64,000 bases of DNA from Dehalococcoidia bacterium. GTDB lineage: Bacteria > Chloroflexota > Dehalococcoidia > CAUJGQ01. The notes beneath the pieces were generated by a model. The model had not been told where the DNA came from and did not search any database. It saw nothing but the letters and a program-made list of their open reading frames with translations. This document shows, piece by piece, positions 12,490 through 56,128 of this stretch; the stretch's first letter is position 1, and each line of letters opens with the position of its first letter. The position numbers and the translations under genes are program-made. The stretch covers positions 1,640-65,639 of the forward strand of contig JBFXAN010000006.1 in the NCBI GenBank assembly GCA_050184225.1. The letters run 5' to 3'.

Positions 12490-12655
12490 ACCCCTCCCCC
12501 GGCCCCTCCCCCCGCAGAGGCGCGGAGCGGGGAGCACTGGTCTGGGTGTGGTGCCAGCGTCGTCCCCGCGACAGTCTGGCTGTGAGACGGTCTACCGTGG
12601 CACCCCAGACCCGGCGAGGCACCCCTCTCCGCGCGTCAGCGGGGGGAGGGGTCCG
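12490..12655. repeat. Palindromic G/C-rich element, family B copy 1
   Basis: Termini are CCCCTCCCCCGGCCCCTCCCCCCGC..GCGGAGCGGGGAGC and the inverted complement ..GGGGGGAGGGGTCCG. This is the same architecture as 26059..26236. It fills the spacer between two gene ends exactly. Confidence 0.8.
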
Positions 12656-13846
12656 TCACACCGCCCCGTCCTCCCGCAACGTCGCAATCGCCTCAGTCGA
12701 GATTCCGAGCACCTCACGCAGCACATCGTCCGTGTGCTCACCGTGGCGCGGTGGCGCGCGGCGCGGCTCGATCGGTGTCTCCGAGAGATGGACTGCCGGC
12801 CCCACCACCTGGATCGACTCGGCCGTGGGATGGGGCAACGTCCGCAACAGACCAAGCGCCTGTACCTGGGGATCGGCCATCGCCTCCGGAACCGTGTTGA
12901 TCGGGCCGGCCGGCACACCGGCGTCGTTGAGCACCCGCAGCCACTCGTCGGCCGGACGTTCGGCGATCACCGCCGCAACCAGCGGAATCAGCACGTCCCG
13001 CTGGTCGAGCCGGTCGGTGTTGGTCGTGAAGCGCGGATCTTCGGCAAGTTCCGGCCGGCCGGCGACGGCGCAGAACGTGCGGAACTGGCGGTCGTTGCCA
13101 ACGGCGAGCGCCAGCGGACGGTCCGCCGCCTGGAACGCCTGATACGGCACGATATTGGGATGCGCATTGCCGAAGCGCTTCGGTGGCGCGCCGCTGACGA
13201 GATAGTTCTGGCCCACGTTGGCGAGCCAGGCGAGTGCGGACTCCAGCAGCGACACATCGACCCGCTGGCCGCGTCCTGTGTCACGCCGTGCATACAGCGC
13301 CGCCAGGATGCCATTGACCGCATTCAGTCCGGCGGTAACATCGACGATCGCGACGCCGACCTTCATCGGTTCACCTTCGGCGTCGCCCGTGATCGACATG
13401 ATCCCGGCCATCCCCTGGATAACGAAGTCGTAGCCGGGGTAGTCCTTGTACGGTCCGGTCGTGCCGAATCCCGTGATCGAGGCGTGGATCAGTCCGGGAT
13501 TGGCCTCCCAGAGCACCGCATCCGCCAGATTCATCCGCTCCAGCGTGCCCCGCTTGAAGTTCTCGATCAGCACATCCGACCGCCGCACCAGGTCGAGCAA
13601 CACCCGCCGCGCGCCCTCGTGCTTCAAATTGAGGGTGATGCCGCGCTTGTTGCGGTTCACCGACAGGTAGTAGGCGCTCTCGCCACCCGCCCAGGGCGGA
13701 CCCCACCCCCGCGTCTCATCGCCGTCGCCCGGCTACTCGACCTTGATCACGTCGGCGCCCATGTCGCCCAGCGTCATCGCCGCATACGGCCCGGCCAGCA
13801 CCCGCGAAAGATCGAGCACACGAATATCATGAAGCGGTCCAGTCAT
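12656..13846 (-). pseudogene. CoA-transferase family III (CaiB/BaiF) gene interrupted by in-frame TAG at codon 38
   Basis: Manual translation from ATG 13846: [74 protein letters not shown]. It runs in the same frame into track ORF 12656..13660. The TAG is at 13733..13735. Confidence 0.8.
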
Positions 13847-17353: not shown

Positions 17354-17424
17354 GCGCCGGCCGAGACATGAACAACGATCGCTGGGGCGGGTCACAGACC
17401 CGCCCTCGTCCACAATGGAGCTGC

Positions 17425-17690
17425 ATCGAACAGGAGTAGTAGGCCGCATAACCAGAGAGCTGACGGTCGGTGCGAGTCAGCGATGCGCGGTCGAACTCGC
17501 CTGGGAGCAGCGGCGATGAACACTCCGATCGGGGTCTAGTCGCCGACGGTTCGCGCCCGTTATCGCGCCCCCAGAGCGCCTCGCGGCGAGACGCTCCCGG
17601 TAGCCACCCCGGGACGCCGCGCAGGAAGCAGGGTGGTACCGCGGAGTATGTGCCCTCCGTCCCTGTATGGACGTGAGGGCTTTTTCTTTT
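17425..17690 (+). promoter_or_regulatory. T-box leader (tRNA-Leu responsive) controlling leuS
   Basis: AGAGA bulge (17454..17458). Distal stem GCTGAC/GTCAGC with loop GGTCGGTGCGA (GGUGNRA-like). AGUA/GAA S-turn elements flank candidate specifier CUC (17496..17498). T-box sequence AGCAGGGTGGTACCGCGG (17627..17646). Terminator hairpin plus T-tract follows. Confidence 0.75.
17652..17690 (+). terminator. Intrinsic terminator of the T-box leader
   Basis: GCCCTCCGTCC-CTGTAT-GGACGTGAGGGC followed by TTTTTCTTTT. Confidence 0.75.
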
Positions 17691-17759
17691 CAGTTCGGAG
17701 TTCAGGGTTCCAAGGTAGTCCCGACTGAACCCCGAATCCCGAACTCGAACCCCGAACTG
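17691..17759. repeat. Heptamer-repeat hairpin (AGTTCGG/CCGAACY units)
   Basis: CAGTTCGGAGTTCAGGGTTC ... GAACCCCGAATCCCGAACTCGAACCCCGAACTG. The arms are complementary and built of ~7-nt units. Confidence 0.6.
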
Positions 17760-17768
17760 GAGCAGGCG

Positions 17769-20354
17769 ATGGCAGAGAAGTTCAATCCTCAAGAAACCGA
17801 CCGGAAATGGCAGCAGCGCTGGGAAGCGGACGGCCTCTACCGGACGCCGGACGACAGCGACAAGCCAAAGTACTACTTCCTGACGATGTACCCCTATCCG
17901 TCCGGCGACCTGCACACCGGCCACTGGTACGCGGAGGCGCCGGCCGACACCAAGGCGCGCTACCTGCGGATGCGCGGCTACAACGTCCTCTTCCCAATGG
18001 GCTTCGACGCCTTTGGCCTGCCCGCCGAGAATGCCGCCATCCGCAATAACATCCATCCGTTCCAGTGGACGATGGCCAACATCGACCGCATGCGCAACCA
18101 GTTCAAGAGCATGGGCGCGATGTTCGACTGGTCGCGCGAGGTGATCACCTGCCTGCCCGAATACTACACATGGAACCAGTGGTTCTTCCTCCAGTTCTAC
18201 AAGAAGGGCCTGGCCTACCGCGCCCGCGCCGCCGTGGACTTCTGCCCCAACTGCAACACGACGCTCGCCCGCGAGCAGGTCTGGGGCGAAGACCGCCGCT
18301 GCGAACGCTGCGGCACGCAGGTCGAAAAGCGCGACCTGGAGCAGTGGTTCTTCCGCATCACCGACTACGCGGACGAGTTGCTGCGCTTCGACGGCCTCGA
18401 CTGGCCCGACCGCGTCAAGACGATGCAGACCAACTGGATCGGCCGGTCCGAGGGCGCGGAGATCGCGTTCGTGATTGAACCTAACCCCCCGACCCCCTCC
18501 CCTCGCAGGGAAGGGGGAGTCCTGAGTGACGTTGGTGGGAATGATATCGCCATCCCACGAACAGACGAGCTACTGGCACCCTCGGTAGATGAGGACTCCC
18601 CTCCCCTGCGAGGGGAGGGGCCGGGGGAGAGGTCTGAAATCCGCGTCTTCACCACCAGACCGGACACGATCTACGGCGTCAGCTTCATGGTGCTGGCGCC
18701 CGAACATCCGCTGGTCGAACAACTGACAACGCCTGAGCAGGCCGAGGCCGTCCGAGAGTACATCGAGCAGGCACGGCGCGAGACGGAGATCGAGCGGACC
18801 GCCGCCGACAAGCCGAAGACCGGCGTCTTCACCGGCGCGTACTGCATCAATCCATACTCCGGCGAGCGGGTGCCGGTCTATGTCGGCGACTACGTGCTCT
18901 ACACCTACGGCACCGGCGCGGTGATGGGTGTGCCCGCGCACGACGAGCGGGACTTCGCCTTCGCCAAAACCTACAGCCTGCCGATCCCGGTGGTGATCGC
19001 GCCATCGGACTGGACCGGTGCGGAACTGGACTCGGCATATACCGAGCCAGGGACGATGGTCAACTCCGGTCCGTTCGACGGCACGCCAAGTGAGGAAGGC
19101 AAGAAACAGGTGATCGCCTACGGCGAGGAACGCGGCTTCGCCACGACGCGGGTGACCTATCGCATGCGCGACTGGCTGATCTCTCGTCAGCGCTATTGGG
19201 GCACGCCGATCCCGATCATCTACTGCCCCGTGGACGGCGTCGTGCCCGTGCCCGAGGAGGATCTGCCCGTCCTCTTGCCGGAGGACTCCGAGTTCCGTCC
19301 GACCGGCGAATCGCCGCTGAAGTATGACGAGCGATTCAAGAACGTGTCCTGCCCAACCTGTGGCGGTCCCGCCGAGCGCGAGACCGACACAATGGACACC
19401 TTCATGGACTCCTCCTGGTACCAGTACCGCTACCTCAGCCCGCACTTCGCCGAGGGGCCGTTCAACCCATCAAAGGCGGATTGGCTGCCGGTCGACCAGT
19501 ATACGGGCGGCATCGAGCACGCGACGATGCACCTGCTCTACTTCCGCTTTTTCACCAAGGCGATGCGCGATCTCGGACTGGTGACGATCGACGAGCCGGT
19601 GACGCGGCTGATCAATCAGGGCATCATCCTCGGTCCCGACAGCCAGAAGATGTCAAAGAGCCGGGGCAACGTCGTCAACCCTGATGATTATGTCGACAGT
19701 CTCGGTGCCGATGTCTTCCGCTGCTATCTGATGTTCATCGGCCCCTGGGAGGACGGCGGCCCCTACCGGCCTGAAGGGATCGAAGGCGTCACCCGCTGGC
19801 TGCATCGTGTCTGGAACCTGACGCTCGACGAGCCACGCTTCGCCGGCACGATCGACGCCGACGCCACCCGCGACCTCCAACGCCGACGGCACAAGACCGT
19901 GCGCGTCGTCTCCGAGGATCTGGAGAACTTCCGGTTCAACACGAAGCTCGCCCGGCTGATGGAGTACACGAACGAGCTCTCCCGCGTCAAAGACAGCGGC
20001 CGGATCGACCCCGCCGTCTGGAACGACGCCGTCGAGACGCTGCTGTTGATGACCGCGCCCGCCGCCCCCCACATCACCGAGGAGTTGTGGGAACGCACCG
20101 GCCGCCCCTACTCGGTCCACACCCAGGCATGGCCGTCCTTCGACCCGGCTCTGGCCGAAGACGAGCAACGAACCATCGTCGTGCAGATCAACGGCAAGGT
20201 CCGCGACCGCCTCTCCGTACCGGTCGACGCCACCCGCGAACAGGTCGAGGCAATGGCGATGGCGAGCGAAAAAGTCGCCGGCCAGATTGACGGCGCCACC
20301 GTGCGAAACGTGGTCTATGTGCCGGGACGGCTGGTCAATATCGTCGTTACCTAA
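17769..20354 (+). CDS. leuS: Leucyl-tRNA synthetase (carries an in-frame repeat-derived insertion)
   Basis: MAEKFNPQETDRKWQQRWE, YPSGDLHTGH (HIGH), VFTTRPDTIYG (CP1), KMSKSRGN (KMSKS). The ATG at 17769 was chosen downstream of the T-box terminator. Confidence 0.95.
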   Translation: MAEKFNPQETDRKWQQRWEADGLYRTPDDSDKPKYYFLTMYPYPSGDLHTGHWYAEAPADTKARYLRMRGYNVLFPMGFDAFGLPAENAAIRNNIHPFQWTMANIDRMRNQFKSMGAMFDWSREVITCLPEYYTWNQWFFLQFYKKGLAYRARAAVDFCPNCNTTLAREQVWGEDRRCERCGTQVEKRDLEQWFFRITDYADELLRFDGLDWPDRVKTMQTNWIGRSEGAEIAFVIEPNPPTPSPRREGGVLSDVGGNDIAIPRTDELLAPSVDEDSPPLRGEGPGERSEIRVFTTRPDTIYGVSFMVLAPEHPLVEQLTTPEQAEAVREYIEQARRETEIERTAADKPKTGVFTGAYCINPYSGERVPVYVGDYVLYTYGTGAVMGVPAHDERDFAFAKTYSLPIPVVIAPSDWTGAELDSAYTEPGTMVNSGPFDGTPSEEGKKQVIAYGEERGFATTRVTYRMRDWLISRQRYWGTPIPIIYCPVDGVVPVPEEDLPVLLPEDSEFRPTGESPLKYDERFKNVSCPTCGGPAERETDTMDTFMDSSWYQYRYLSPHFAEGPFNPSKADWLPVDQYTGGIEHATMHLLYFRFFTKAMRDLGLVTIDEPVTRLINQGIILGPDSQKMSKSRGNVVNPDDYVDSLGADVFRCYLMFIGPWEDGGPYRPEGIEGVTRWLHRVWNLTLDEPRFAGTIDADATRDLQRRRHKTVRVVSEDLENFRFNTKLARLMEYTNELSRVKDSGRIDPAVWNDAVETLLLMTAPAAPHITEELWERTGRPYSVHTQAWPSFDPALAEDEQRTIVVQINGKVRDRLSVPVDATREQVEAMAMASEKVAGQIDGATVRNVVYVPGRLVNIVVT
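18480..18633. repeat. Family A palindromic element copy 1, inside the leuS ORF
   Basis: CCTAACCCCCCGACCCCCTCCCCTCGCAGGGAAGGGGGAG..GAGCTACTGGCACCCTCGGTAGATGAG..CCCCTCCCCTGCGAGGGGAGGGGCCGGGGGAGAGGT. Same termini and core as the intergenic copies. Confidence 0.85.
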
Positions 20355-20503
20355 CCCCCCGGCCCCCTTCCCTGCGAGGGAAGGGGGTGCCTCATTCTAC
20401 CGAGGTGCCAGTAGCTCGTCGGGCGACACCGACGATCCTCGTTCCACCACGGTAAACCAGAACTCCCCCTTCCCTGCGAGGGAAGGGGGCCGGGGGGTTA
20501 GGT
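20350..20503. repeat. Family A palindromic element copy 2 (inverted orientation)
   Basis: Termini are CCTAACCCCCCGGCCCCCTTCCCTGCGAGGGAAGGGGG / CCCCCTTCCCTGCGAGGGAAGGGGGCCGGGGGGTTAGGT. The core is the reverse complement of copy 5. It contains the leuS stop TAA (20352..20354). Confidence 0.9.
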
Positions 20504-20508
20504 ATCCC

Positions 20509-21528: not shown

Positions 21529-22068
21529 CTAACAATAAAATGCGACGCCAGTGTCACCATAGCGACGGTCGGAGTGGAGCGCCAATCCACCGATCGATGT
21601 CGGGGGAGTGCGCCCTTGCGCATGCTCGAGCACAATCGTGCCGCCCTCCGCGACGATCGCGGAAGCCGCCAGCGTCTCCAGCATGCGTCCAATCGTCGCG
21701 TCGGCATACGGCGGGTCGAGGAAGACCAGCGTGAACGGACCGGCCAGTCGCGCGATCGCCCGCTGCGCGTCAAGGCAGTGAACCCGCGCCCGGTCGGACA
21801 TCCGTGCCCGCACCAGGTTCTTGCGGATCGCCGCACAGGCTGCCGGTGCCCGATCGACGAGATCGGCATGTTCCGCGCCACGGCTGAGCGCCTCGATCGC
21901 CAGCGCCCCGGTCCCGGCATACAGGTCAAGCACGCGCGAGCTATCCGCTCCCATCGAATACAGAATCGAGAAGATTGCCTCTCGCACACGATCAGCCGTC
22001 GGCCGCGTCTCGACGCCCTTGGGCGCGATCAGCGGCGTGCCGCGCGATGTGCCGCCGATGACTCGCAA
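21529..22068 (-). CDS. rsmD: 16S rRNA (guanine966-N2)-methyltransferase
   Basis: RVIGGTSRGTPLIAPKG..TRPTADRVREAIFSIL, LDLYAGTGALAIEALSRGA, VFLDPPY. The TTG at 22068 was chosen because the track ORF N-terminus (to 22173) is repeat-derived. Confidence 0.85.
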   Translation of the reverse strand: MRVIGGTSRGTPLIAPKGVETRPTADRVREAIFSILYSMGADSSRVLDLYAGTGALAIEALSRGAEHADLVDRAPAACAAIRKNLVRARMSDRARVHCLDAQRAIARLAGPFTLVFLDPPYADATIGRMLETLAASAIVAEGGTIVLEHAQGRTPPTSIGGLALHSDRRYGDTGVAFYC

Positions 22069-22075
22069 TTTTCTA

Positions 22076-22245
22076 CCTAACCCCCCGGCCCCCTTCCCTC
22101 GCAGGGAAGGGGGAGTCCTCGTCAACCAAGATGGAACGAGGATCGTCGGTATCGCCCAATGAGATACTGGCACCGTCGGTCGATGAGAATTCCCCCTTCC
22201 CTTGCAGGGAAGGGGGCGCTGTGAGCGCAGCGAACCGGGTTAGGT
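22076..22245. repeat. Family A palindromic element copy 3
   Basis: Left terminus is identical to copies 4 and 5. The right terminus carries a ~15-nt extra segment (GCTGTGAGCGCAGCGAA) before GGGTTAGGT. Confidence 0.85.
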
Positions 22246-26058: not shown

Positions 26059-26236
26059 ACCCCTCCCCCGGCCCCTCCCCCCGCCTGCGGCGCGGAGAGG
26101 GGAGCCTGACGTACCAGGATTACCAGCGTCACTTTCGCTATGGTCTGGCGATTGGCTGGTTGACGTTGGTAGACCCGTGCCGGTGAGGCTCCCCTCTCCG
26201 CGCCGCAGGCGGGGGGAGGGGCCGGGGGAGGGGTCC
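26059..26236. repeat. Palindromic G/C-rich element, family B copy 2
   Basis: ACCCCTCCCCCGGCCCCTCCCCCCGCCTGCGGCGCGGAGAGGGGAGCC ... GGCTCCCCTCTCCGCGCCGCAGGCGGGGGGAGGGGCCGGGGGAGGGGT. It fills the greA-lysS spacer. Confidence 0.9.
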
Positions 26237-29202: not shown

Positions 29203-29206
29203 CCAA

Positions 29207-29361
29207 CCTAACCCCCCGGCCCCCTTCCCTCGCAGGGAAGGGGGAGTCCTGGTCTGCCATGGTGGAACAAGTCTCGTTGGTGCTTCCAGACGAAATACTG
29301 GCACCATCGGTTGCAGCGTACTCCCCCTTCCCTGCGAGGGAAGGGGGCCGGGGGGTTAGGT
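29207..29361. repeat. Family A palindromic element copy 4
   Basis: Both termini are intact (CCTAACCCCCCGGCCCCCTTCCCTCGCAGGGAAGGGGGAG / CCCCCTTCCCTGCGAGGGAAGGGGGCCGGGGGGTTAGGT). The core contains ATACTGGCACCATCGGTTG. Confidence 0.9.
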
Positions 29362-29418
29362 ATAGACTCCCACCGAGCTATAATCCGGTTCGGCCACGCT
29401 CATCTGAAAGGAGCCAAC

Positions 29419-30517: not shown

Positions 30518-30691
30518 GCCGGCCCTCACCCCCGACCCCTCTCCCGCCGAGCGGGAGAGGGGAGCCTGATCGGTGCGGTGCTTCCAGTATCGACACCGGC
30601 TCTACCAGACGAAGGCATGGGCTGGTAGGAACGATCTGCTGAGGCTCCCCTCTCCCGCTCCGGCGGGAGAGGGGCCGGGGGTGAGGGCCGG
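30518..30691. repeat. Palindromic G/C-rich element, family C copy 1
   Basis: GCCCTCACCCCCGACCCCTCTCCCGCCGAGCGGGAGAGGGGAGCC ... GGCTCCCCTCTCCCGCTCCGGCGGGAGAGGGGCCGGGGGTGAGGGC. It fills the spacer between convergent stop codons. Confidence 0.9.
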
Positions 30692-31483
30692 CTACACCAC
30701 ACTCGATGTCCCCCCATCGACATTGATCGCAACCCCGGTGATATACCCGGCCCGCTCCGACAGCAGAAACGCGATCAACGCGGCCACTTCGCTCGCTTCG
30801 CCGACACGCCCGAGAGGTATCGCGGCGCCCATTCGCTCGTAGGCATCGTCCAGGGGTAGATCGGGGTGCCGTCGCACAGCAGCGCGGGCGATCTGCGCGC
30901 TCTTGATCAAGCCGATGCAGACGGTATTGACGAGGATGTTGTCCTTCGCCAGTTCCTTCGACATCGCTTTCGTCAGCGCGATGCCGGCCGCGCGGCTGAC
31001 CGAGGTCGGCAATGAGTTGGCGCCCGGCTGCTTCGCACCGATGTTCGTGATGTTGATGATCCGGCCGCCACCCGCCTCGCGCATCCCCGGCACGACGAGA
31101 CGCGACAACCGCACCGCCGCCATCAGCTTCAGGTCGAGGTCGGAATACCACGCCTCGTCCTGGACCGACTCAAACCCGCCGGCCGCAGACGTCCCCGCGT
31201 TATTCACCAGCAGCGTGATCGGTCCCAGTTCCGCGGATACACGCTCCACACACGCCGCAATGTCGTCGGCGCGGCTCACATCGGCCGGAACGGCGAGCAC
31301 AGCGGCGCCGGTCGACGCGCGAATCTCCTCGACCGTCTGCGTCAATACGTCAGGTCTCCGCGCGCAGATCGCGACGCGCGCCCCTTCCCGCGCCAACTCC
31401 TCAGCCGTGGCGCGACCGATCCCCTCACTCCCACCCGTGATGAGAGCGACTCGTCCCGCGAGTCCAAGATCCATCCACGCCAC
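30692..31483 (-). CDS. Short-chain dehydrogenase/reductase (FabG-like)
   Basis: ALITGGSEGIGRATA (TGxxxGxG), NNAG, and a Y/K active-site region. Confidence 0.85.
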   Translation of the reverse strand: MAWMDLGLAGRVALITGGSEGIGRATAEELAREGARVAICARRPDVLTQTVEEIRASTGAAVLAVPADVSRADDIAACVERVSAELGPITLLVNNAGTSAAGGFESVQDEAWYSDLDLKLMAAVRLSRLVVPGMREAGGGRIINITNIGAKQPGANSLPTSVSRAAGIALTKAMSKELAKDNILVNTVCIGLIKSAQIARAAVRRHPDLPLDDAYERMGAAIPLGRVGEASEVAALIAFLLSERAGYITGVAINVDGGTSSVV

Positions 31484-31664: not shown

Positions 31665-33320
31665 ATGACCAGCCTCGCCGAACCGACGCCGATCGCGACA
31701 CCCGAGGATTTCCCCGTCGATTGGGATGACCCATCCGACGCCGCGCTGCATTGGACCTGGGACCAGATGCATACCCCGCGCCCGATCTGCCCGCTGGGGC
31801 GTGACCTGATGCCGTTCGCTTTTGCTACGGGCATGACGGCGGGGTTCCGCGAAAGCGGCGCACCGATCAAGGAACGGCGCCTGCGGTTTGTGAACACATT
31901 CCTCTACGCGGCCATGATCCCGGACCTTGCGTTGCTGCCGGATACACCCGCCCGCATGCAGTCGATCGTGGCCGAGCGCGGCCCCGACATGTACCAGCGA
32001 TGGCTCGATGTCTATCTGCCCGAGGTCCAGGCCACCAACGAGCGGCTCCGTTCGTACGCCTACACCGCCGCGGGCGACACCGAGCTGCGCGCGTTCATTG
32101 ACGAAACGCTACCGGCGCTGGCGCGCATGTGGGAGATCCATTTCCTGTTGATGCCGGGCTTCATGATCTCGGCCGGGTTCAAGAACTTCTGCGCGCACCG
32201 GCTGGGCCTGACCGCGCTGGAAGCATTCGAGATGATGCAGGGGGCGCCCAACATGTCGGTCGAGTCCGGCAGCACCCTCTGGCGGCTCGCGCACGGTGCG
32301 CCGGCCAGCGTCCAGGACATGATCGCCACGCAGAGCGCCGATGATGCTCTCGCGTACCTACGAGAGACAGCCGAGGGACGCGCCTTCCTCGCGGCGCTGG
32401 CCGAATATCTCGCGGTCTATGGCTGGCGCAAAGGGCACTTCGACGTGATCGGACCGGCCTGGGCCGAGGCGCCGGCGCTGGCGCTCGATCAGGTGCGGCT
32501 GTTGCTGCGCGCCCCGACCGACCCGGCCGAGGACCAGCAGCGCGGCGCAGAGCGGGCCGAGCAGGCGGCGGCGGCCTGCCGGCAGCGGCTCGCCGACGAC
32601 CCGGCGGCGCTGGCCGAGTTCGATGCGCTCTATCAGATAGTCAAGCGCTATCCACAGCTCCAGGAGAACCACAACTTCTACATCGACCAGACCTTCATGG
32701 CGTTGCTGCGCCTGCCGTTCCTCGAGGCGGGGCGGCGGATGGCGGCGCGGGGACAGATCGACGACGCCGAGGAGTACGCCTACCTGCGCCTCGACGAGAT
32801 CCGCGACGCGCTGGGCGGCGATACCACACCGCATCACGACGCCGTCGCCGAGCGGCGGACGGAGATGGAACGCTGGCAGTCATATCTGCCGCCCCAGGCG
32901 ATCGGCACGCCGCCGCCGGCCGGGGCCGCCTCGGACTTCGAGTCCGACTTCTTCGGCGCGCCGGTGGAACCATCCCGCGACCCACGGGTGGTCCAGGGGC
33001 TGCCCGGCTCGCGCGGGGTGGCGACCGGCGTCGCGCGCGTCGTGCGCACGCTCACCGAGGCCGACCAGATCGAGGAGGGCGACATTCTCGTCTGCGAGAT
33101 GACGACACCAGCCTGGACACCCCTGTTCGCTGGTCTGGCCGGTATCGTCGCCGATTCCGGCGGCCCGCTCTCCCACTGCGCGATCGTTGCCCGCGAGTTC
33201 GACATTCCTGCCGTAGTGGGCACGCGGCTCGGTACGCGCCTGATTCCCGACGGCGCCCGGATCACGATCGACGGTGGCCAGGGGGTCGTTCGCATCGAAT
33301 CTTACCCCACCTCGCCGTGA
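31665..33320 (+). CDS. PEP-utilising-enzyme mobile-domain protein (phosphotransferase of PEP synthase / rifampicin phosphotransferase type, no ATP-grasp seen)
   Basis: C-terminal GSRGVATGVARVV..GDILVCEMTTPAWTPLFAGLAGIVADSGGPLSHCAIVAREFDIPAVVG (swivelling His domain). The start is uncertain (31566 or 31665). The track ORF from 30903 overlaps the SDR gene antisense. Confidence 0.7.
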   Translation: MTSLAEPTPIATPEDFPVDWDDPSDAALHWTWDQMHTPRPICPLGRDLMPFAFATGMTAGFRESGAPIKERRLRFVNTFLYAAMIPDLALLPDTPARMQSIVAERGPDMYQRWLDVYLPEVQATNERLRSYAYTAAGDTELRAFIDETLPALARMWEIHFLLMPGFMISAGFKNFCAHRLGLTALEAFEMMQGAPNMSVESGSTLWRLAHGAPASVQDMIATQSADDALAYLRETAEGRAFLAALAEYLAVYGWRKGHFDVIGPAWAEAPALALDQVRLLLRAPTDPAEDQQRGAERAEQAAAACRQRLADDPAALAEFDALYQIVKRYPQLQENHNFYIDQTFMALLRLPFLEAGRRMAARGQIDDAEEYAYLRLDEIRDALGGDTTPHHDAVAERRTEMERWQSYLPPQAIGTPPPAGAASDFESDFFGAPVEPSRDPRVVQGLPGSRGVATGVARVVRTLTEADQIEEGDILVCEMTTPAWTPLFAGLAGIVADSGGPLSHCAIVAREFDIPAVVGTRLGTRLIPDGARITIDGGQGVVRIESYPTSP

Positions 33321-33333
33321 GGAGACCCGAATG

Positions 33334-33408
33334 TGTCATCCTGAGCGACAGCGAAGGATCTCGGAGGTTACGTACGTCCGAGATCCTTCGCTGTCGCTCA
33401 GGATGACA
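33334..33408. repeat. Family D palindrome (TGTCATCCTGAGCG..GAAGGATCTCGG core), copy 1
   Basis: TGTCATCCTGAGCGACAGCGAAGGATCTCGGA-loop-TCCGAGATCCTTCGCTGTCGCTCAGGATGACA. The flanks (about 33310..33440) are also similar to copy 2. Confidence 0.9.
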
Positions 33409-37241: not shown

Positions 37242-39692
37242 ATGATGCGACAGGATAGGTTCACCGAGCAGGCCCGCGAGGCACTCGCGGCATCGCAGGA
37301 ATTGGTCCGGCAACAGCGGCACAGCCAGTGGGACGTGGAGCACGTCCTCCTCGCCCTCGTCGACCTTCAGGGCGGCCTCGCCCAGGAGATCCTGAAACGG
37401 CTCGACGTGCCCGTCGACCAGCTTCGCCGCCGGATCGCCGAGAGCCTGAATCAGACGCCGAAGCTCGCCTACGACGTGGTCCAGATCTACACCACGCCGC
37501 GGATCGTCCGGTTGCTGGAAAACGCCGACGCCGAAGCGAACCGTCTCAAGGACGAATACATCGGCGTCGAGCACCTGCTGATCGCGATCGCCGACGAGCG
37601 CGAGGGCGACGCCGCAACCGCCCTGCGTGACCTCGGCATCGACAAGGAGCGCATTTATCGCGCCCTCTCCGAGGTGCGGGGCAAGGCGCGGGTCGACGAC
37701 CCCCGCGCCGAGTCGCGCTATCAGGCGCTGGCCAAGTACTCGACCGACCTCACCGCAATGGCGGCGTCCGGCAAGCTCGATCCCGTGATCGGGCGTGAGG
37801 ACGAGGTGAAGCGCGTCATGCAGATCCTCAACCGCCGTCAGAAGAACAACCCGGTGATCATCGGCGAGGCGGGCGTCGGTAAGACGGCGATCGTCGAGGG
37901 GCTCGCCCAGGCGATCGTCGCCGATGACGTGCCGGAGAACCTGCGCGGCAAGCGGCTCGTCGCGCTCGACGTCGGCGCCCTCGTCGCCGGCTCGAAGTTC
38001 CGCGGCGAGTTCGAAGAGCGCCTCCAGGCGATCATGCGCGAGGTGCGCAAGGCCGCCGGTGAGGTGATCCTCTTCATCGACGAGCTGCACCAGGTCGTCG
38101 GCGCCGGCGGCGCCGATGGCGCGATCGACGCCAGCACGATGATGAAACCGGCGCTGGCCCGCGGCGAGCTGCGCGCGATCGGCGCGACGACGCTCGACGA
38201 GTACCGTCGCTATATCGAGAAGGACCCAGCACTGGAGCGCCGCTTTGCCCCGGTGTATGTGGACGAGCCGAGCGTCGAGGAGACGATCGCGATCCTGCAC
38301 GGCCTGCGGCCCCGCTACGAGGCGCACCACGATGTCACGATCACCGATGCCGCGCTCGACGCGGCGGCCAAGCTCTCCGACCGCTACATCACCGAACGCT
38401 TCCTGCCGGACAAGGCGATCGACCTGATCGACGAGTCGGCCTCGAAGCACGTGATCGAGGCGCAGAGCCTGACGCCGGCAATGCGCGGTCTGCGGAAGCG
38501 GCTCGACGCACTCAGCGCCGAGATGGACGCCGCTGCCGGCCGCGAGGACTACGAGGCGGCGGCGCGGGTCAAGCAGGAAGTGCTCACGCTGCAGGAGGAG
38601 TGGAACGCGGCCAAGGCCGCTCGCCAGGCCGAGCGCGGTGAGGGCGACGAGGAGATCGTCACCGAGCAGGACATCGCCTCCCTGGTCGCATCGATCACCG
38701 GCATCCCGATCGACCGGATGCTCGAGGGCGAAGCAGAGAAGCTCCTCCAGATGGAGGAGCGGCTGCACGACCGCGTCATTGGTCAGGAGGCGGCGATCGA
38801 GGCGCTCTCCGACGCGATCCGCCGGGCACGCGCCGGCCTGAAGGACCCCCGCCGCCCGATCGGCAGCTTCATCTTCCTCGGCCCCACCGGCGTCGGCAAG
38901 ACGGAGCTGGCGAAGGCGCTGGCCGAGCTGATGTTCGACGACGAGGACGCGATCGTGCGGCTCGACATGAGCGAGTACCAGGAGCGGCACACCGTCTCCC
39001 GCCTGATCGGCGCGCCTCCCGGCTACGTCGGCTACGACGAGGGCGGCGGTCTCACCGAGGCGGTGCGGCGGCGGCCGTATCGGGTGATCCTCTTCGACGA
39101 GATCGAAAAGGCGCACCCCGACGTCTTCAACACACTGCTCCAGATTCTGGAGGACGGCCGGCTGACCGACGGCCAGGGCCACACGGTCGACTTCCGCAAC
39201 ACCGTCGTCATCATGACGAGTAACCTCGGCACCGGCGACCGCGGCAAGTCGATCGGCCTGACGTTAGGCAAGCGGACGGAGAGCACCGCCGACCGGCAGA
39301 AGCTGGAGGAGAACGTGCTGCGGGCGCTGCGCGACCACTTCCGGCCGGAGTTCCTCAACCGGATCGACGAGATCATCGTCTTCGAGCCGCTCACCGAGCG
39401 GGAACTGGCCCAGATCGTCGACCTGATGGTCGAGGAAGTGCGGGAGCGCCTGGAGGAGCGGGGCGTGACGCTGACGTTGACCGCCGCCGCCAAAGACGCA
39501 CTCGTTCGCGAAGGCTACGACCCGACCTACGGCGCCCGCCCGCTGCGCCGCGTGATCCAGCGGCAGGTGGAGAACCAGGTCTCCAAGCGCCTGCTCGCCG
39601 GCGAGTTCGGCGAAGGCGACACCGTCCACGTCGACCATACGCCGGACGGCTACACCTTCACCAAGGTCGAGCCGGCGACCGCCGCGGCGTAA
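37242..39692 (+). CDS. clpB: ATP-dependent chaperone ClpB
   Basis: Clp N repeats, two AAA+ modules ([15 protein letters not shown] and [15 protein letters not shown]), and a long middle coiled coil. 816 aa from ATG 37242. Confidence 0.95.
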
Positions 39693-41146: not shown

Positions 41147-41259
41147 CGCCCGCCCGTTGCGCCACGTGATCCAGCGGCAGGTGGAGAACCAGGTCTCCAA
41201 GCGCCTGCTCGCCGGCGAGTTCGGCGAGGGCGACACCGTCCATGCCGACCACACCCCGG
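41147..41259 (+). pseudogene. Duplicated fragment of the clpB 3' end
   Basis: 113 nt align without gaps to clpB 39533..39645, with about 7 mismatches by eye. It encodes [28 protein letters not shown] versus clp[29 protein letters not shown]. Confidence 0.85.
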
Positions 41260-42653: not shown

Positions 42654-43865
42654 ATGGGCATTCGCCGCATGAAATTCGGTATCTTCCTGGCGCCGTTCCA
42701 CCGCGTGGGCGAGAATCCGACGCTCGCCCTGGCGCGTGACATGGAGCTGATCCAGTGGCTCGACCACCTCGGTTATGACGAGGCGTGGATCGGCGAACAT
42801 CACTCCGCCGGCTGGGAGACGATCGCCGATCCGGCGGTCTTCATCGCGGCCGCGGCCGAACGGACCAAGTACATCAAGCTCGGCGCCGGCGTCGTCAGCC
42901 TCCCCTACCACCATCCGCTGATGGTGGCGGAGCGGTTCGTCCAGCTCGACCACATGACCCGTGGCCGCTCGATGCTCGGCGTTGGACCCGGCGCGCTCGT
43001 CTCCGACGCCTACATGATGGGCATCGAGCCGGTGACACAGCGGCAGCGGATGGATGAATCGCTCGGCGCGATCATATCGCTGCTCCGTTGCGAAGAGCCG
43101 GTGACGATGAAGACGGACTGGTTCGAGCTGCGCGAGGCGCGGCTGCATCTCGCGCCGTTCTCCGAGCCGCGCTTCGAGATCGCCGCCGCCAGCCAGATTA
43201 CCCCCGCCGGCATGGTCACGGCGGGCAAGTACGGCGTCGGCGTACTCTCGCTCGGCGCTGGTCTGCCCGGCGGCGCCGACGCGCTCGCCAACCACTGGCA
43301 GATCGCCGAAGACGCCGCCGCCGAGGCGGGCCACACGATGAATCGAAAAGAGTGGCGGCTCGTGGCGCCGGTCCATGTCGCCGAGGACCGCGAACAGGCG
43401 CTGCACGATGTCCGGCAGGGCGAGCGGGCGCACACGCTCTCCTACTTCCAGGAGACGCTCGGCCGTCCGCCCGGCCGCGACTCCGAAGACCCGCTGCGCG
43501 AGGGCGTCGAGGCCGGCACTACCCTCGTCGGATCGCCGGAGGATGTCACGCGCGGGATCGAACGGCTGGTGGAGATGAGCAAGGGCGGCTTCGGCGGTCT
43601 GCTCTTCATGGCGCACGAATGGGCCAACCGCGAGGCAACGCTGCGCAGCTTCGAGCTCTTCGCCCGCTACGTCATGCCTCGCTTCCAAGGCCAGATCGAC
43701 ACCCTGCACAACTCCCGCGAGTGGGTCGCCAGCAACAAGAAGACGATCTTCGGCCCCAACGCCGCCGCGATCGCCAAGGCCTTCTCCGATGCGGGCAGAG
43801 AAATGCCGGAGGTACTCGCGGGAAGGTTCAAGCCAAACCCCTCCCCCGACCCCTCCCCCCGCTGA
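42654..43865 (+). CDS. LLM-class (luciferase-like) flavin-dependent monooxygenase
   Basis: MKFGIFLAPFH..LGYDEAWIGEHHS. RBS GGGAGGGG. The last ~9 codons (PNPSPDPSPR) and the TGA stop lie in a family B repeat arm. Confidence 0.85.
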   Translation: MGIRRMKFGIFLAPFHRVGENPTLALARDMELIQWLDHLGYDEAWIGEHHSAGWETIADPAVFIAAAAERTKYIKLGAGVVSLPYHHPLMVAERFVQLDHMTRGRSMLGVGPGALVSDAYMMGIEPVTQRQRMDESLGAIISLLRCEEPVTMKTDWFELREARLHLAPFSEPRFEIAAASQITPAGMVTAGKYGVGVLSLGAGLPGGADALANHWQIAEDAAAEAGHTMNRKEWRLVAPVHVAEDREQALHDVRQGERAHTLSYFQETLGRPPGRDSEDPLREGVEAGTTLVGSPEDVTRGIERLVEMSKGGFGGLLFMAHEWANREATLRSFELFARYVMPRFQGQIDTLHNSREWVASNKKTIFGPNAAAIAKAFSDAGREMPEVLAGRFKPNPSPDPSPR

Positions 43866-44068
43866 CGCGCGGAGCGAGGAGTCTTTACCTAACCCCCCGG
43901 CCCCCTTCCCTCGCAGGGAAGGGGGAGTTCTGGTTTACCGTGGTGGAACGAGGATCGTCGCTGTTCCCACACGAGCTACTGGCACCCTCGGTTGATGAGT
44001 GCACCCCCTTCCCTGCGAGGGAAGGGGGCCGGGGGGTTAGGTAAATCCGGGCCGGGGGAGGGGTCCGC
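43837..44068. repeat. Family B element remnant (copy 3) split by a nested family A copy
   Basis: The left arm ACCCCTCCCCCGACCCCTCCCCCCGCTGACGCGCGGAGCGAGGAGTC and the right end CCGGGCCGGGGGAGGGGTCCG flank 43888..44043. Confidence 0.65.
43888..44043. repeat. Family A palindromic element copy 5
   Basis: Both termini are intact. The core is GAGCTACTGGCACCCTCGGTTGATGAG. Confidence 0.9.
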
Positions 44069-45994: not shown

Positions 45995-46086
45995 CCCAAT
46001 CACGACTGAGCAGTCGCCGCGCCGTGGCGAGAGGCATCCCACAGAAACCGTTTGTTATACCGCCTCGCGGTGAGGAAACCCGGATT

Positions 46087-46162
46087 TGTCATCCTGAGCG
46101 ACAGCGAAGGATCTCGGACATTATCAGACCACCGAGATCCTTCGCTGTCGCTCAGGATGACA
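46087..46162. repeat. Family D palindrome, copy 2
   Basis: TGTCATCCTGAGCGACAGCGAAGGATCTCGGA-loop-CCGAGATCCTTCGCTGTCGCTCAGGATGACA. The flanks are similar to copy 1. Confidence 0.9.
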
Positions 46163-56041: not shown

Positions 56042-56128
56042 CCACCGCTGTCATCCTGAGCGGAGCGAAGGATCTCGGACGCAAGTAACCTCCGAGATCC
56101 TTCACTGCGTTCAGGATGACAGCGGTGG
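56042..56128. repeat. Family D palindrome, copy 3
   Basis: CCACCGCTGTCATCCTGAGCGGAGCGAAGGATCTCGGA-loop-TCCGAGATCCTTCACTGCGTTCAGGATGACAGCGGTGG. Confidence 0.85.

Follow-up and report, generated by a model that had tools for sequence, protein, structure and literature searches.

The leucyl-tRNA synthetase gene (leuS) of a Dehalococcoidia bacterium carries within its coding sequence an in-frame copy of a palindromic repeat, likely a REPIN/MITE-like element that would survive there as a tolerated, translated and disordered loop. We analyzed a window of 64,000 nt of the MAG GCA_050184225.1 (contig JBFXAN010000006.1, positions 1,640–65,639). Its translation and tolerance are deduced from an intact reading frame and a structure model of the protein.

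The leuS coding sequence spans positions 17769..20354 of the forward strand (861 aa; probable ATG start at 17769; full ORF 17667–20354). Its product is 100% identical to the NCBI MAG protein “leucine--tRNA ligase [Dehalococcoidia bacterium]” and matches the LeuRS of T. thermophilus (1H3N) with an E-value of 9e-258. We found all the features of a functional bacterial LeuRS: the HIGH-type signature HTGH (residues 49–52), KMSKS (627–631), a CP1 domain with TTRPDT (295–300) and the GTG..VPAHD.RD region, and the anticodon-binding and C-terminal domains. The precomputed Pfam domains of this protein (P0001) include tRNA-synt_1, tRNA-synt_1_2 (the CP1 editing domain) and Anticodon_1, and the columns of the alignment that are invariant among homologues are retained. 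The gene is preceded by a T-box leader on the same strand (17417..17667; RF00230), which matches the model over its full length, presents a CUC (Leu) specifier and scores 88.8 bits (gathering score 93; E = 1.2e-19), and is followed by a hairpin and a T-run (~17650–17693). The intact ORF, the motifs and the leucine T-box suggest that leuS is apparently functional on the one contig inspected.

The palindromic element occupies positions 18479..18635 of the forward strand and corresponds to LeuRS residues 238–289 (PNPPTPSPRREGG...PPLRGEGPGERS). A preliminary description of this region had recognized a family copy of ~154 bp at 18480–18633; the location stands, with the first base at 18479 (a leading A) and the probable end at ~18635. 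The ORF crosses the element with zero stops and yields exactly the peptide given in that description, with predicted junction peptides AFVIEPNPPTPSPR and GEGPGERSEIR. Among the sense-strand frames, the one in use is the only one that is open. The left hairpin unit (18479..18519, +) is composed of the tag ACCTAACCCCCCGA and the stem CCCCCTCCCCT / AGGGAAGGGGG with the loop CGC, and differs from the canonical unit by one stem mismatch and one tag change. It is followed by the conserved core motif GAGCTACTGGCACCCTCGGT (18567..18586, +), which encodes ELLAPSV, and by the right hairpin unit (18596..18633, +), made of CT, the perfect stem CCCCTCCCCT-GCG-AGGGGAGGGG and the tag CCGGGGGAGAGGT. The predicted RNA fold of the element has a minimum free energy of −101.5 kcal/mol (z = −9.3), relative to a mean of −55.5 for the other 155-nt windows of leuS. 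A hairpin of −101 kcal/mol within an essential mRNA could have consequences.

The right terminus of this copy (CTCCCCTCCCCTGCGAGGGGAGGGGCCGGGGGAGAGGT) had been read as more diverged than those of the intergenic copies, as expected if only ORF-preserving variants survive. We rejected this interpretation: the terminus represents a second canonical type, a hairpin whose 10 bp are all matched, and both stem arms differ from those of the other unit type in a compensatory manner. The same right unit, except for one tag base, is found in the intergenic element located just after the leuS stop codon of a sister genome (L114/L115), and in many phyla the ACCTAACC unit is usually paired with this type. 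Moreover, a canonical GGTTAGGT end would likewise be open in the frame used at the leuS site.

The leuS copy belongs to a dispersed family. Searching for the core 20-mer GAGCTACTGGCACCNTCGGT with up to three mismatches returned four matches in the window (18567, 22161, 29292 and 43973), where shuffled sequences are expected to give 0.01. Repeat search and MAFFT alignment defined five copies of 155–171 nt, one of them being the leuS copy, which is 68–75% identical to the others. The architecture consists of two tagged G+C-rich hairpin units, inverted around a core of ~75 nt; the units are ~36–41 nt long with stems of 10–11 bp, and both doublets and arrays are found. The inverted termini of the window elements measure ~40 nt and the elements contain no ORF of their own. 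The four intergenic copies previously listed at 20350, 22076, 29207 and 43888 were all recovered, although the orientation of the first had gone unremarked: this copy (20349..20504, −; start at 20348 in the repeat search) aligns best in the opposite orientation. The others are on the forward strand at 22075..22245, at 29206..29362 (symmetric, with both ends of the ..GGTTAGGT type) and at 43887..44043 (symmetric, and with 75% identity nearer to the leuS copy than the other three). The flanks read TA...TA at 20349, 22075 and 43887, AA...TA at 29206 and AA...TC at leuS, and whether they represent a target duplication is ambiguous.

Two sites present signs of mobility. The copy at 22075 stops 6 nt short of the TTG that probably starts rsmD, and no element is found at the corresponding site of the relative L115. 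The element following leuS differs from its counterpart in L114/L115 in type, orientation and junction. In the window, the terminus of this element (ACCTAAcc) provides the last codon (ACC) and the stop codon (TAA) of leuS at 20352–20354, whereas LeuRS orthologues end in ...NIVVG* with a stop codon of their own. These units shift gene ends, as for the leuS stop codon and the rsmD start here, and they inflate hypothetical ORFs, which is relevant to the annotation of MAGs.

At the protein level, both structural mapping and modeling placed the insert where the chain enters the CP1 editing domain, as had been proposed. We compared the linker across the 120 closest LeuRS homologues, for 118 of which the WIGRS and TTRPDT motifs could both be located. 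The two motifs are separated by 18 residues in 54 of the 118 homologues and by no more than 22 in 88 of them, relative to 67 residues in the window LeuRS; the usual spacing of 10–15 residues given in the preliminary description was close to these measurements. Residues 1–237 and 286–623 map to residues 2–237 and 238–580 of the T. thermophilus enzyme, leaving ~48 residues unmatched between E237 and G238, ~8 residues before the TTRPDT editing motif. The AlphaFold2 model (pLDDT 88; pTM 0.82) contains a single segment with pLDDT <50, residues 243–286, which is the insert, flanked by strands 226–236 and 290–295. In this model the insert loops out where the first beta-hairpin of the CP1 editing domain turns, and it probably represents a floppy surface-loop addition of ~50 aa. 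The term “CP1 hairpin” designates in bacterial LeuRS a zinc-binding hairpin located upstream (PMC4138327). We considered this hairpin as the insertion site and discarded it: the insert sits after the N-terminal linker strand, in CP1's own first hairpin.

The distribution of expanded loops among relatives suggests that this position is a recurrent target. All six members of the clade P0001–P0006 present an expanded loop, in contrast to 18 residues in the sister clade P0007–9. The loops of the other five clade members are 30–53 residues long, with hairpin elements in two of them, and termini of the same family were found in P0006 only. No ~50-aa segment, which would have contradicted the preliminary description, is conserved across orthologues. 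At the DNA level, we detected hairpin units in the same loop in P0002, P0006, P0034, P0040 and P0050. These cases show that in other Chloroflexota the same LeuRS loop grew through the entry of different hairpin units, and therefore that it constitutes a permissive hot spot. The turn corresponding to E237/G238 of T. thermophilus is a structurally permissive site that has repeatedly accommodated 10–60 additional residues, a property of use in protein engineering and in the reading of LeuRS alignments.

We propose that a non-autonomous copy of the repeat landed in the leuS coding sequence. It would have survived because its length and frame leave the ORF open and because the turn of the first CP1 beta-hairpin would let the extra residues loop into the solvent. 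The segment would be transcribed and translated as a disordered loop of ~50 residues rich in Pro, Gly and charged residues, and would be tolerated rather than functional. Different units entered the same loop, and in other phyla genes unrelated to leuS read through units of this family, which together indicate survivorship at permissive sites. The insertion may be recent or have recurred, or it may be old, with conversion or constraint having preserved the similarity. The hairpin units of the P0001 and P0006 inserts share 93–95% identity, compared with only 55% at the fourfold-degenerate sites of the two genes; such unit identity is not accounted for by a single old insertion that was simply tolerated as neutral.

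A single insertion in the ancestor of P0001–P0006, inherited vertically with decay and deletion, is nevertheless a reading to which we give appreciable weight, while judging it somewhat less probable than its converse. It would account for the expanded loop of all six clade members, for the shared frame at both ends and the shared pair of unit types in the P0001 and P0006 inserts, and for a possible remnant in the P0003 loop (CGAACAACGACGAG, to be compared with the core CGAACAGACGAG). However, the units are 93–95% identical in spite of nearly saturated synonymous sites (0.555 identity), the two junctions do not coincide (8 nt vs 5 nt past the Phe codon), and the element beside leuS shows clear turnover from one sister genome to the other. 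In addition, the left-plus-right pairing of units is the commonest architecture everywhere and is therefore not a shared derived trait. The strong conservation of the units relative to neutral sites of the host gene could alternatively indicate that the insert was kept for a function, either as a new flexible arm at the hinge of CP1, with an effect on editing, on the handling of tRNA or on the binding of partners, or as an RNA hairpin tuning the stability or translation of the leuS mRNA. The retention of an expanded loop by every clade member, the proximity of the insert to the N-terminal strand linking CP1 to the body and to TTRPDT (~8 residues), and the very stable RNA structure are consistent with such an exaptation. 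We consider it improbable: the clade loops are unrelated in sequence and in length (30–67 residues), the closest relative, P0003, has no hairpins, and AlphaFold2 assigns no structure to the insert. Furthermore, the conservation of the units is general to the family, including intergenic copies in other phyla, so that their conservation inside leuS needs no leuS-specific function.

Two further explanations would remove the insert from the working protein. The preliminary description had named an assembly artefact, or a disrupted leuS backed by a second copy, as outcomes that would overturn it. Repeats are classic points of breakage and mis-joining in MAG sequences, the contig behind L117 stops right after the next element, and, with one contig inspected, a second leuS could lie elsewhere in the genome. 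Against this, the leuS copy is unique in sequence (68–75% identity to the others) and flanked by leuS sequence on both sides, and the independent MAG GCA_050247955.1 contains the same insert with 1 SNP in 2746 nt, as does a third, partial record. A related insert is also present in P0006, which comes from a separate JGI metagenome, and the ORF, the motifs and the T-box leader are intact, making an artefact or a pseudogene very unlikely. Even less credible is the removal or bypass of the element before the protein is made, through intron-like excision, RNA processing with re-ligation, or translational bypass. The single long and very stable hairpin that joins the two ends of the element could favor such a process, but the whole element is open solely in the frame used, which would be needless if it were removed; it has no match to Rfam introns or ribozymes, and there are many other genes in which these units are read through. 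The tolerated insertion remains our preferred interpretation.

We extended the search of these units beyond this genome. The exact 25-nt left terminus was found in more than 112 stretches of many phyla, among them Chloroflexota, Planctomycetota, Armatimonadota, Cyanobacteria, Desulfonema, Poribacteria and Latescibacterota, and in six viral contigs. Isolates with the unit include Nostoc sp. UHCC 0252, Anabaena sp. 4-3 and Oscillatoria sp. HE19RPO. Based on DNA-level detection in long ORFs, units are in frame within Pfam-verified Pyr_redox_2, P-type ATPase, CbiA and AcrB-family domains, and in a MoCoBD linker. The 52-aa insert peptide, a short and composition-biased query, gave no match by word-indexed search or full phmmer against 1.84 billion representatives, a negative that is uninformative for such a query. 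In a metagenome scan, a 27-mer of the family core had zero matches and the core 20-mer had seven, all unrelated to the element: five short-chain dehydrogenase-like N-termini (coding for GATGTIG), one other coding-like stretch and one tRNA gene. The lack of related matches for the core suggests that the 155-nt composite looks lineage-restricted, whereas its terminal units are widespread. A tRNA origin of the core was considered and rejected, since the likeness of its reverse complement GGTGCCAGTAGCTC to the 5' end of a tRNA spans only 14 nt, and there is no similarity to the adjacent tRNA-Ala. Searching Rfam with the element returned nothing at the gathering threshold, and we interpret the weak sub-threshold matches (sot2652 at 24 bits, a miRNA hairpin) as generic hairpin similarity. 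Searching the literature for literal sequence strings, we found no description of the family, in line with the preliminary description; the terminal unit, in contrast, is very widespread and its tag fits a published motif discussed below. Going further, we can tentatively envisage, with less than even confidence, a single unit superfamily that spreads horizontally with covarying stems and time and again adds disordered loops rich in Pro and Gly to conserved enzymes. This would constitute a pan-bacterial process resembling that of the Rickettsia palindromic elements (RPEs), undescribed as far as we searched, with the first CP1 hairpin as a recurrent landing pad subject to insert turnover. A unit family shared nearly unchanged across distant phyla offers a candidate system for studying repeat-born disordered segments and the movement of repeats between phyla.

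The element shares properties with several known systems. Bacterial MITEs that fuse in frame with genes include ERIC/RU elements, Coxiella QMITE1 and Anabaena MITEb/e; they are usually AT-rich and tied to known IS with matching TIRs and clear target-site duplications (PMC10969869, PMC2759123, PMC5896051). The leuS family is similarly small and non-coding, with terminal inverted repeats, a stable RNA hairpin and ORF-internal copies that are read through, but it is extremely G+C-rich, its duplication is ambiguous and it has no known parent IS; none with matching termini was seen within the window. As in REP/REPIN systems, short tagged hairpin units (of the 20–40 nt class) form inverted doublets or arrays, mostly intergenic near gene ends and occasionally intragenic. 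In contrast to these systems, neither end of the units carries GTAG and the 155-nt family of the window holds a core of ~75 nt between the units. The inverted repeats flanking TIRYT tyrosine transposases carry the motif GGGG[AT][CG]A[CG] (PMC3733652, PMC6006769). This consensus fits GGGGAGAG (right unit, AGAGGT-type tag) and GGGGTGAG (30523/30647 family), and seven of eight positions of GGGGTTAG (left unit, TTAGGT-type tag), a match over 8 nt constituting weak evidence. Movement would most likely proceed by single-strand transposition, with a tyrosine transposase (HUH/Y1, RAYT/TIRYT-type) acting from another locus of the genome. Clustering the ORFs that lie up to 1.5 kb from a unit at 112 loci revealed no recurrent family, and a HuH...YxxxNP regular expression for RAYT/TIRYT had no match in the window or in these loci.

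The closest parallel is with the RPEs, as the preliminary description had anticipated. In the accounts given in PMC10969869 and PMC3733652 (after Ogata et al. 2000), RPEs are palindromic sequences of ~100–150 nt that are dispersed intergenically and also found in frame in housekeeping genes, where the segments that they encode are thought to be surface-located and compatible with function; their tag is given as CGTC (PMC3733652). The leuS element is likewise 155 nt long, folds as one long hairpin and occurs in frame in an intact gene, as do the same units in other genes. Its sequence is unrelated, however, with the tags CCGGGGG(G)TTAGGT and CCGGGGGAGAGGT instead of CGTC, its units are common to several phyla, and its host is a free-living G+C-rich Chloroflexota rather than an obligate intracellular alphaproteobacterium. 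The leuS element is thus an analogue and not a member of the RPEs, that is, an RPE-like in-frame palindromic repeat from another family, which brings the in-frame colonization of an essential conserved enzyme by selfish palindromic DNA beyond Rickettsia and reduced genomes.

Five copies of a palindromic repeat element of about 155 nt were delimited in the window by repeat finding and alignment. One lies inside leuS (18479-18633) and four are intergenic (20348-20504, best aligned on the minus strand; 22075-22245; 29206-29362; 43887-44043). The core 20-mer GAGCTACTGGCACCNTCGGT matches the window four times with at most three mismatches, against 0.01 matches expected from shuffles, and the leuS copy shares 68-75% identity with the other four. 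The ORF at 17667-20354 contains no stop across the internal copy: the sense-strand frame in use is open and the other two hold 4 and 2 stops. From the ATG at 17769, leuS encodes 861 aa, 100% identical to the NCBI entry 'MAG: leucine--tRNA ligase [Dehalococcoidia bacterium]'. The preliminary description had reported a repeat copy within leuS that is read in frame without a stop; this observation is confirmed (the region 18300-18800 reads as described) and its interpretation is partly supported.

The extra segment is an insertion relative to orthologous proteins, as had been proposed. We measured loop length as the distance between the motifs WIGRS and TTRPDT, both of which were found in 118 of the 120 closest LeuRS homologues. 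This distance is 18 residues in 54/118 and at most 22 in 88/118, compared with 67 in the window LeuRS; a single homologue has a longer loop (78 residues). Residues 1-237 of the window LeuRS align to residues 2-237 of Thermus thermophilus LeuRS and residues 286-623 to 238-580, so that the extra residues fall between E237 and G238 of the latter, without counterpart in solved structures. The insert (residues 238-289) stands between 'EGAEIAF', which we take to be the N-terminal strand entering CP1, and 'I.VFTTRPDT', presumably the strand running to the threonine-rich editing motif, and it is therefore placed in the turn of the editing domain's first hairpin. The zinc-binding 'CP1 hairpin' (as the term is used in PMC4138327) is not where the insert sits. 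An AlphaFold2 model built from an alignment of 94 sequences (mean pLDDT 88, pTM 0.82), a prediction that the preliminary description had suggested, shows the insert as a low-confidence loop between strands: residues 243-286 form the sole stretch with pLDDT below 50, flanked by strands at 226-236 and 290-295. Of the 52 residues of the insert, 10 are Pro, 7 are Gly and 15 are charged. The low pLDDT and this composition fit a disordered loop that would be pushed out from the hairpin tip.

We found that leuS is otherwise intact. The protein retains its HIGH-type (HTGH), KMSKS and TTRPDT motifs as well as the columns invariant across homologues. Directly 5' of the gene lies a T-box leader (17417-17667; 88.8 bits, E 1.2e-19; Rfam gathering score 93) with a CUC (Leu) specifier, followed by a hairpin and a T-run. 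The T-box and its apparent terminator together span 17417-17693, and the default Rfam scan overlooked the leader because its score is just below gathering. The 90%-identity cluster of the window LeuRS holds two more NCBI MAG records with an identical insert, one of them partial, the other full length and differing by one K-to-M change. At the DNA level, the latter (GCA_050247955.1) shows 1 difference in 2746 bases and is identical to the window across 2.5 kb upstream. An assembly artefact or a disrupted leuS had been raised as an alternative, but an independent assembly carries the insert and the leuS motifs are present. Repeat collapse is very unlikely, because the insert recurs in other MAG records and the sequence of the leuS copy is unique.

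Each end of the element is a tagged hairpin unit. The canonical left unit consists of ACCTAACCCCCCGG, CCCCCTTCCCT, a loop of 3-8 nt, AGGGAAGGGGG and AG, and the four intergenic copies are symmetric, their other end being the reverse complement of the left unit (..GGGGGCCGGGGGGTTAGGT). Unlike these, the leuS copy has a right unit composed of CT, CCCCTCCCCT-GCG-AGGGGAGGGG (a perfect stem) and CCGGGGGAGAGGT. As RNA, the entire leuS copy adopts a single long hairpin (-101.5 kcal/mol, z -9.3); the intergenic copies reach -106 to -127 kcal/mol, and other 155-nt segments of leuS average -55.5 kcal/mol, the most stable of them at -70.5. The window contains additional G+C-rich hairpin families whose tags are related (e.g., CCCCTCTCCC...GGGAGAGGGG+CCGGGGGTGAGGG), at 12490-12677, 26060-26221, 30523-30698, 43837-43881 and 53547-53604; they seem to be part of one superfamily with the leuS element, with covarying stems. 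A separate family with TGTCATCCTGAGCGACAGCGAAGGATCTCGGAGG and an inverted partner is found at 33302-33393, 46055-46123 and 56064-56107, and two direct copies of a 113-nt repeat (94% identity, 1.6 kb apart) at 39533-39645 and 41147-41259.

The right terminus of the leuS copy had been read as more diverged, as expected if only ORF-preserving variants survive. Our results do not support this reading. In loci matching an exact 25-mer of the left terminus, the commonest next unit past a short spacer is the leuS right-end type (..CTCCCCTCCCCT-loop-AGGGGAGGGGCCGGGGGAGAGGT). In the sister genome, which encodes the LeuRS P0003, an intergenic element directly following the stop of leuS shares its left unit with the leuS copy; its core includes GGGCTACTGGCA, and its right unit differs from the leuS-internal one by one tag base (GAGAAGT vs GAGAGGT). 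The two unit types carry compensatory differences in both stem arms, and the canonical GGTTAGGT end is likewise open in the relevant leuS frame. Because the stem changes are compensatory and the canonical end would stay open, we rejected ORF-selected decay: the terminus is a canonical second unit type and a subfamily trait. Compared with the symmetric copies, the reading used in leuS crosses three canonical frames, which give PNPPAPFPRREGG (left), ELLAPSVDE (core) and PPLRGxG (right) and are connected by small indels; the frame that leuS uses at the left end is interrupted by stops in all symmetric copies. These indels may have originated after insertion or may be a trait of the heterodimer subfamily.

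Judging from sequence, the loop of the first CP1 hairpin of LeuRS is a hot spot. A neighbor-joining tree, built after removal of gapped columns including the loop, places the window protein (P0001) in the clade (P0006,(P0005,P0004,(P0002,(P0001,P0003)))), whose loops are, in the order P0006, P0005, P0004, P0002, P0001 and P0003, 49, 32, 30, 53, 67 and 30 residues long, against 18 in the sister clade. The loop DNA of P0006 contains a shorter element with both unit types and the frame of the window leuS, that of P0002 two hairpins with different stems, and that of P0003 no hairpin. Outside this clade, P0034 and P0040 each have a single hairpin-plus-tag unit in the loop, and P0050 has related units at two sites, the loop and another position within CP1. 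Loops exceed 22 residues in 30 of the 118 homologues, several with recognisable repeat-derived peptides (GEGPGERV, NPLSASGEGAGERV, SPLPxGEG, SERSEESR); SERSEESR, typical of TGTCATCCTGAGCGACAGCGAAGGATCTCGGAGG-kind repeats, is present in the loop of P0114. A second repeat-derived insertion in CP1, after VIAPP, was observed in P0050 (L133 1233-1430 plus the second CP1 site) and P0052. Both P0050 inserts contain the peptide STPSSENAPTQS, and therefore one element entered the same gene twice. In P0026 (1055 aa), a CP1-region segment is apparently duplicated (FTTRPDT...PLKLHPTWR occurs twice); this could reflect an error of assembly or gene calling, or a true internal duplication.

The units are also widely distributed across phyla. 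A scan of one-genome-per-species contigs for the exact 25-nt left terminus matched more than 112 stretches. The matches listed include Chloroflexota (Anaerolineae, Ktedonobacterales, Dehalococcoidia, Chloroflexia, Ardenticatenaceae), Planctomycetota (Gemmataceae, Frigoriglobus, Fimbriiglobus, Zavarzinella), Armatimonadota (Chthonomonadaceae), Cyanobacteria, isolates among them (Nostoc, Anabaena, Oscillatoria, Laspinema), and Desulfonema, Thiomargarita, Poribacteria, Latescibacterota and Acetothermia. Example repeat loci are L024 4266-4520, L025 1079-1380 and L054 3983-4085. Tandem arrays of the terminus repeat every 64 nt in Oscillatoria and every 101 nt in a Zipacnadia MAG, and a 1913-aa Chthonomonadaceae ORF contains it as three in-frame tandem AGKGAGGLG repeats. 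In a Desulfonema limicola MAG (L005, L006, L010, L030, L071), G+C-rich doublets within AT-rich flanks are always preceded by one sequence of about 20 nt (aaatcgctttcaaac.c), which suggests a larger composite repeat or a favoured target in that genome. Six IMG/VR viral contigs (L125-L130) carry the exact 25-mer, often just 5' of ORF starts; they could be vehicles of inter-phylum spread or host-derived DNA. We further screened the compared loci for units that lie 80 codons or more within long ORFs, and ten of these were examined with Pfam. Four domains are split by units: Pyr_redox_2 in L007, HAD of a P-type ATPase in L045 (Fimbriiglobus), CbiA in L049 (Anaerolineae) and an AcrB-family transporter domain in L078 (Gemmataceae). 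In a molybdenum hydroxylase (L076), a unit occupies the linker between MoCoBD_1 and MoCoBD_2. Three further cases, in which a domain split is not demonstrated, are less certain: a ResIII-domain ORF containing two units (L072), an Hpt-domain ORF containing two doublets (L097) and what may be a gene fusion (L073).

Element copies show turnover between the window and its syntenic sister loci. The element upstream of rsmD is absent from the matching site in L115, and the elements following leuS in the window and in L114/L115 are of different type and orientation and have different junctions. The last codon and stop codon of the window leuS come from the terminus of the element downstream (ACC TAA cc, 20349-20354), whereas close orthologues end in ...NIVVG with their own stop codon; in L114/L115, an element of a different subtype and orientation lies 2 nt past the leuS stop (L114 7460-7480). 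The copy near rsmD (within 22066-22245) stops 6 nt 5' of the probable TTG start of this gene, whose six-frame ORF is lengthened by 35 element-derived codons, and its terminus may now be a candidate ribosome-binding region.

The leuS copy itself could derive from a single old insertion: the loop is expanded in the whole clade, P0001 and P0006 have frame and unit types in common, and P0003 retains a possible core remnant. Alternatively, insertion was recent or recurrent, or the copy was converted, since P0001 and P0006 share 93-95% identity in the units, compared with 55.5% at fourfold sites (64% for P0003), and the left junctions of these two copies are offset. On this sequence evidence, we lean toward recurrent insertion or replacement rather than one old event. 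Target duplications at element copies are ambiguous; no gene family recurring near the units was found, nor any HuH/Y1 motif in the window or compared loci. The AGAGGT-type tag holds GGGGAGAG and the window family at 30523/30647 holds GGGGTGAG, both of which fit GGGG[AT][CG]A[CG], the consensus of inverted repeats flanking TIRYT (RAYT-like, subclass 2.1 Y1) transposases (PMC3733652, PMC6006769). This match, together with the hairpin-plus-tag design, variable loops and inverted doublets, makes a single-strand Y1 transposase our best guess for the mobilising candidate.

The best explanation would be a selfish repeat that inserted at a permissive LeuRS loop and is translated and tolerated. In-frame palindromic repeats in housekeeping genes are already known from Rickettsia RPEs, intragenic REPs, ERIC/RU elements and Coxiella QMITE1 (PMC10969869, PMC3733652, PMC2759123, PMC5896051). 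Within the literature searched, the literal terminus strings gave no relevant match; of greater interest in this case are the hot spot in LeuRS and the unit family shared across phyla. The leuS element behaves like a Rickettsia RPE but differs in sequence, tag and host, which places it outside the RPEs, and it lacks the GTAG tag of classical REPs, which places it outside that family as well.
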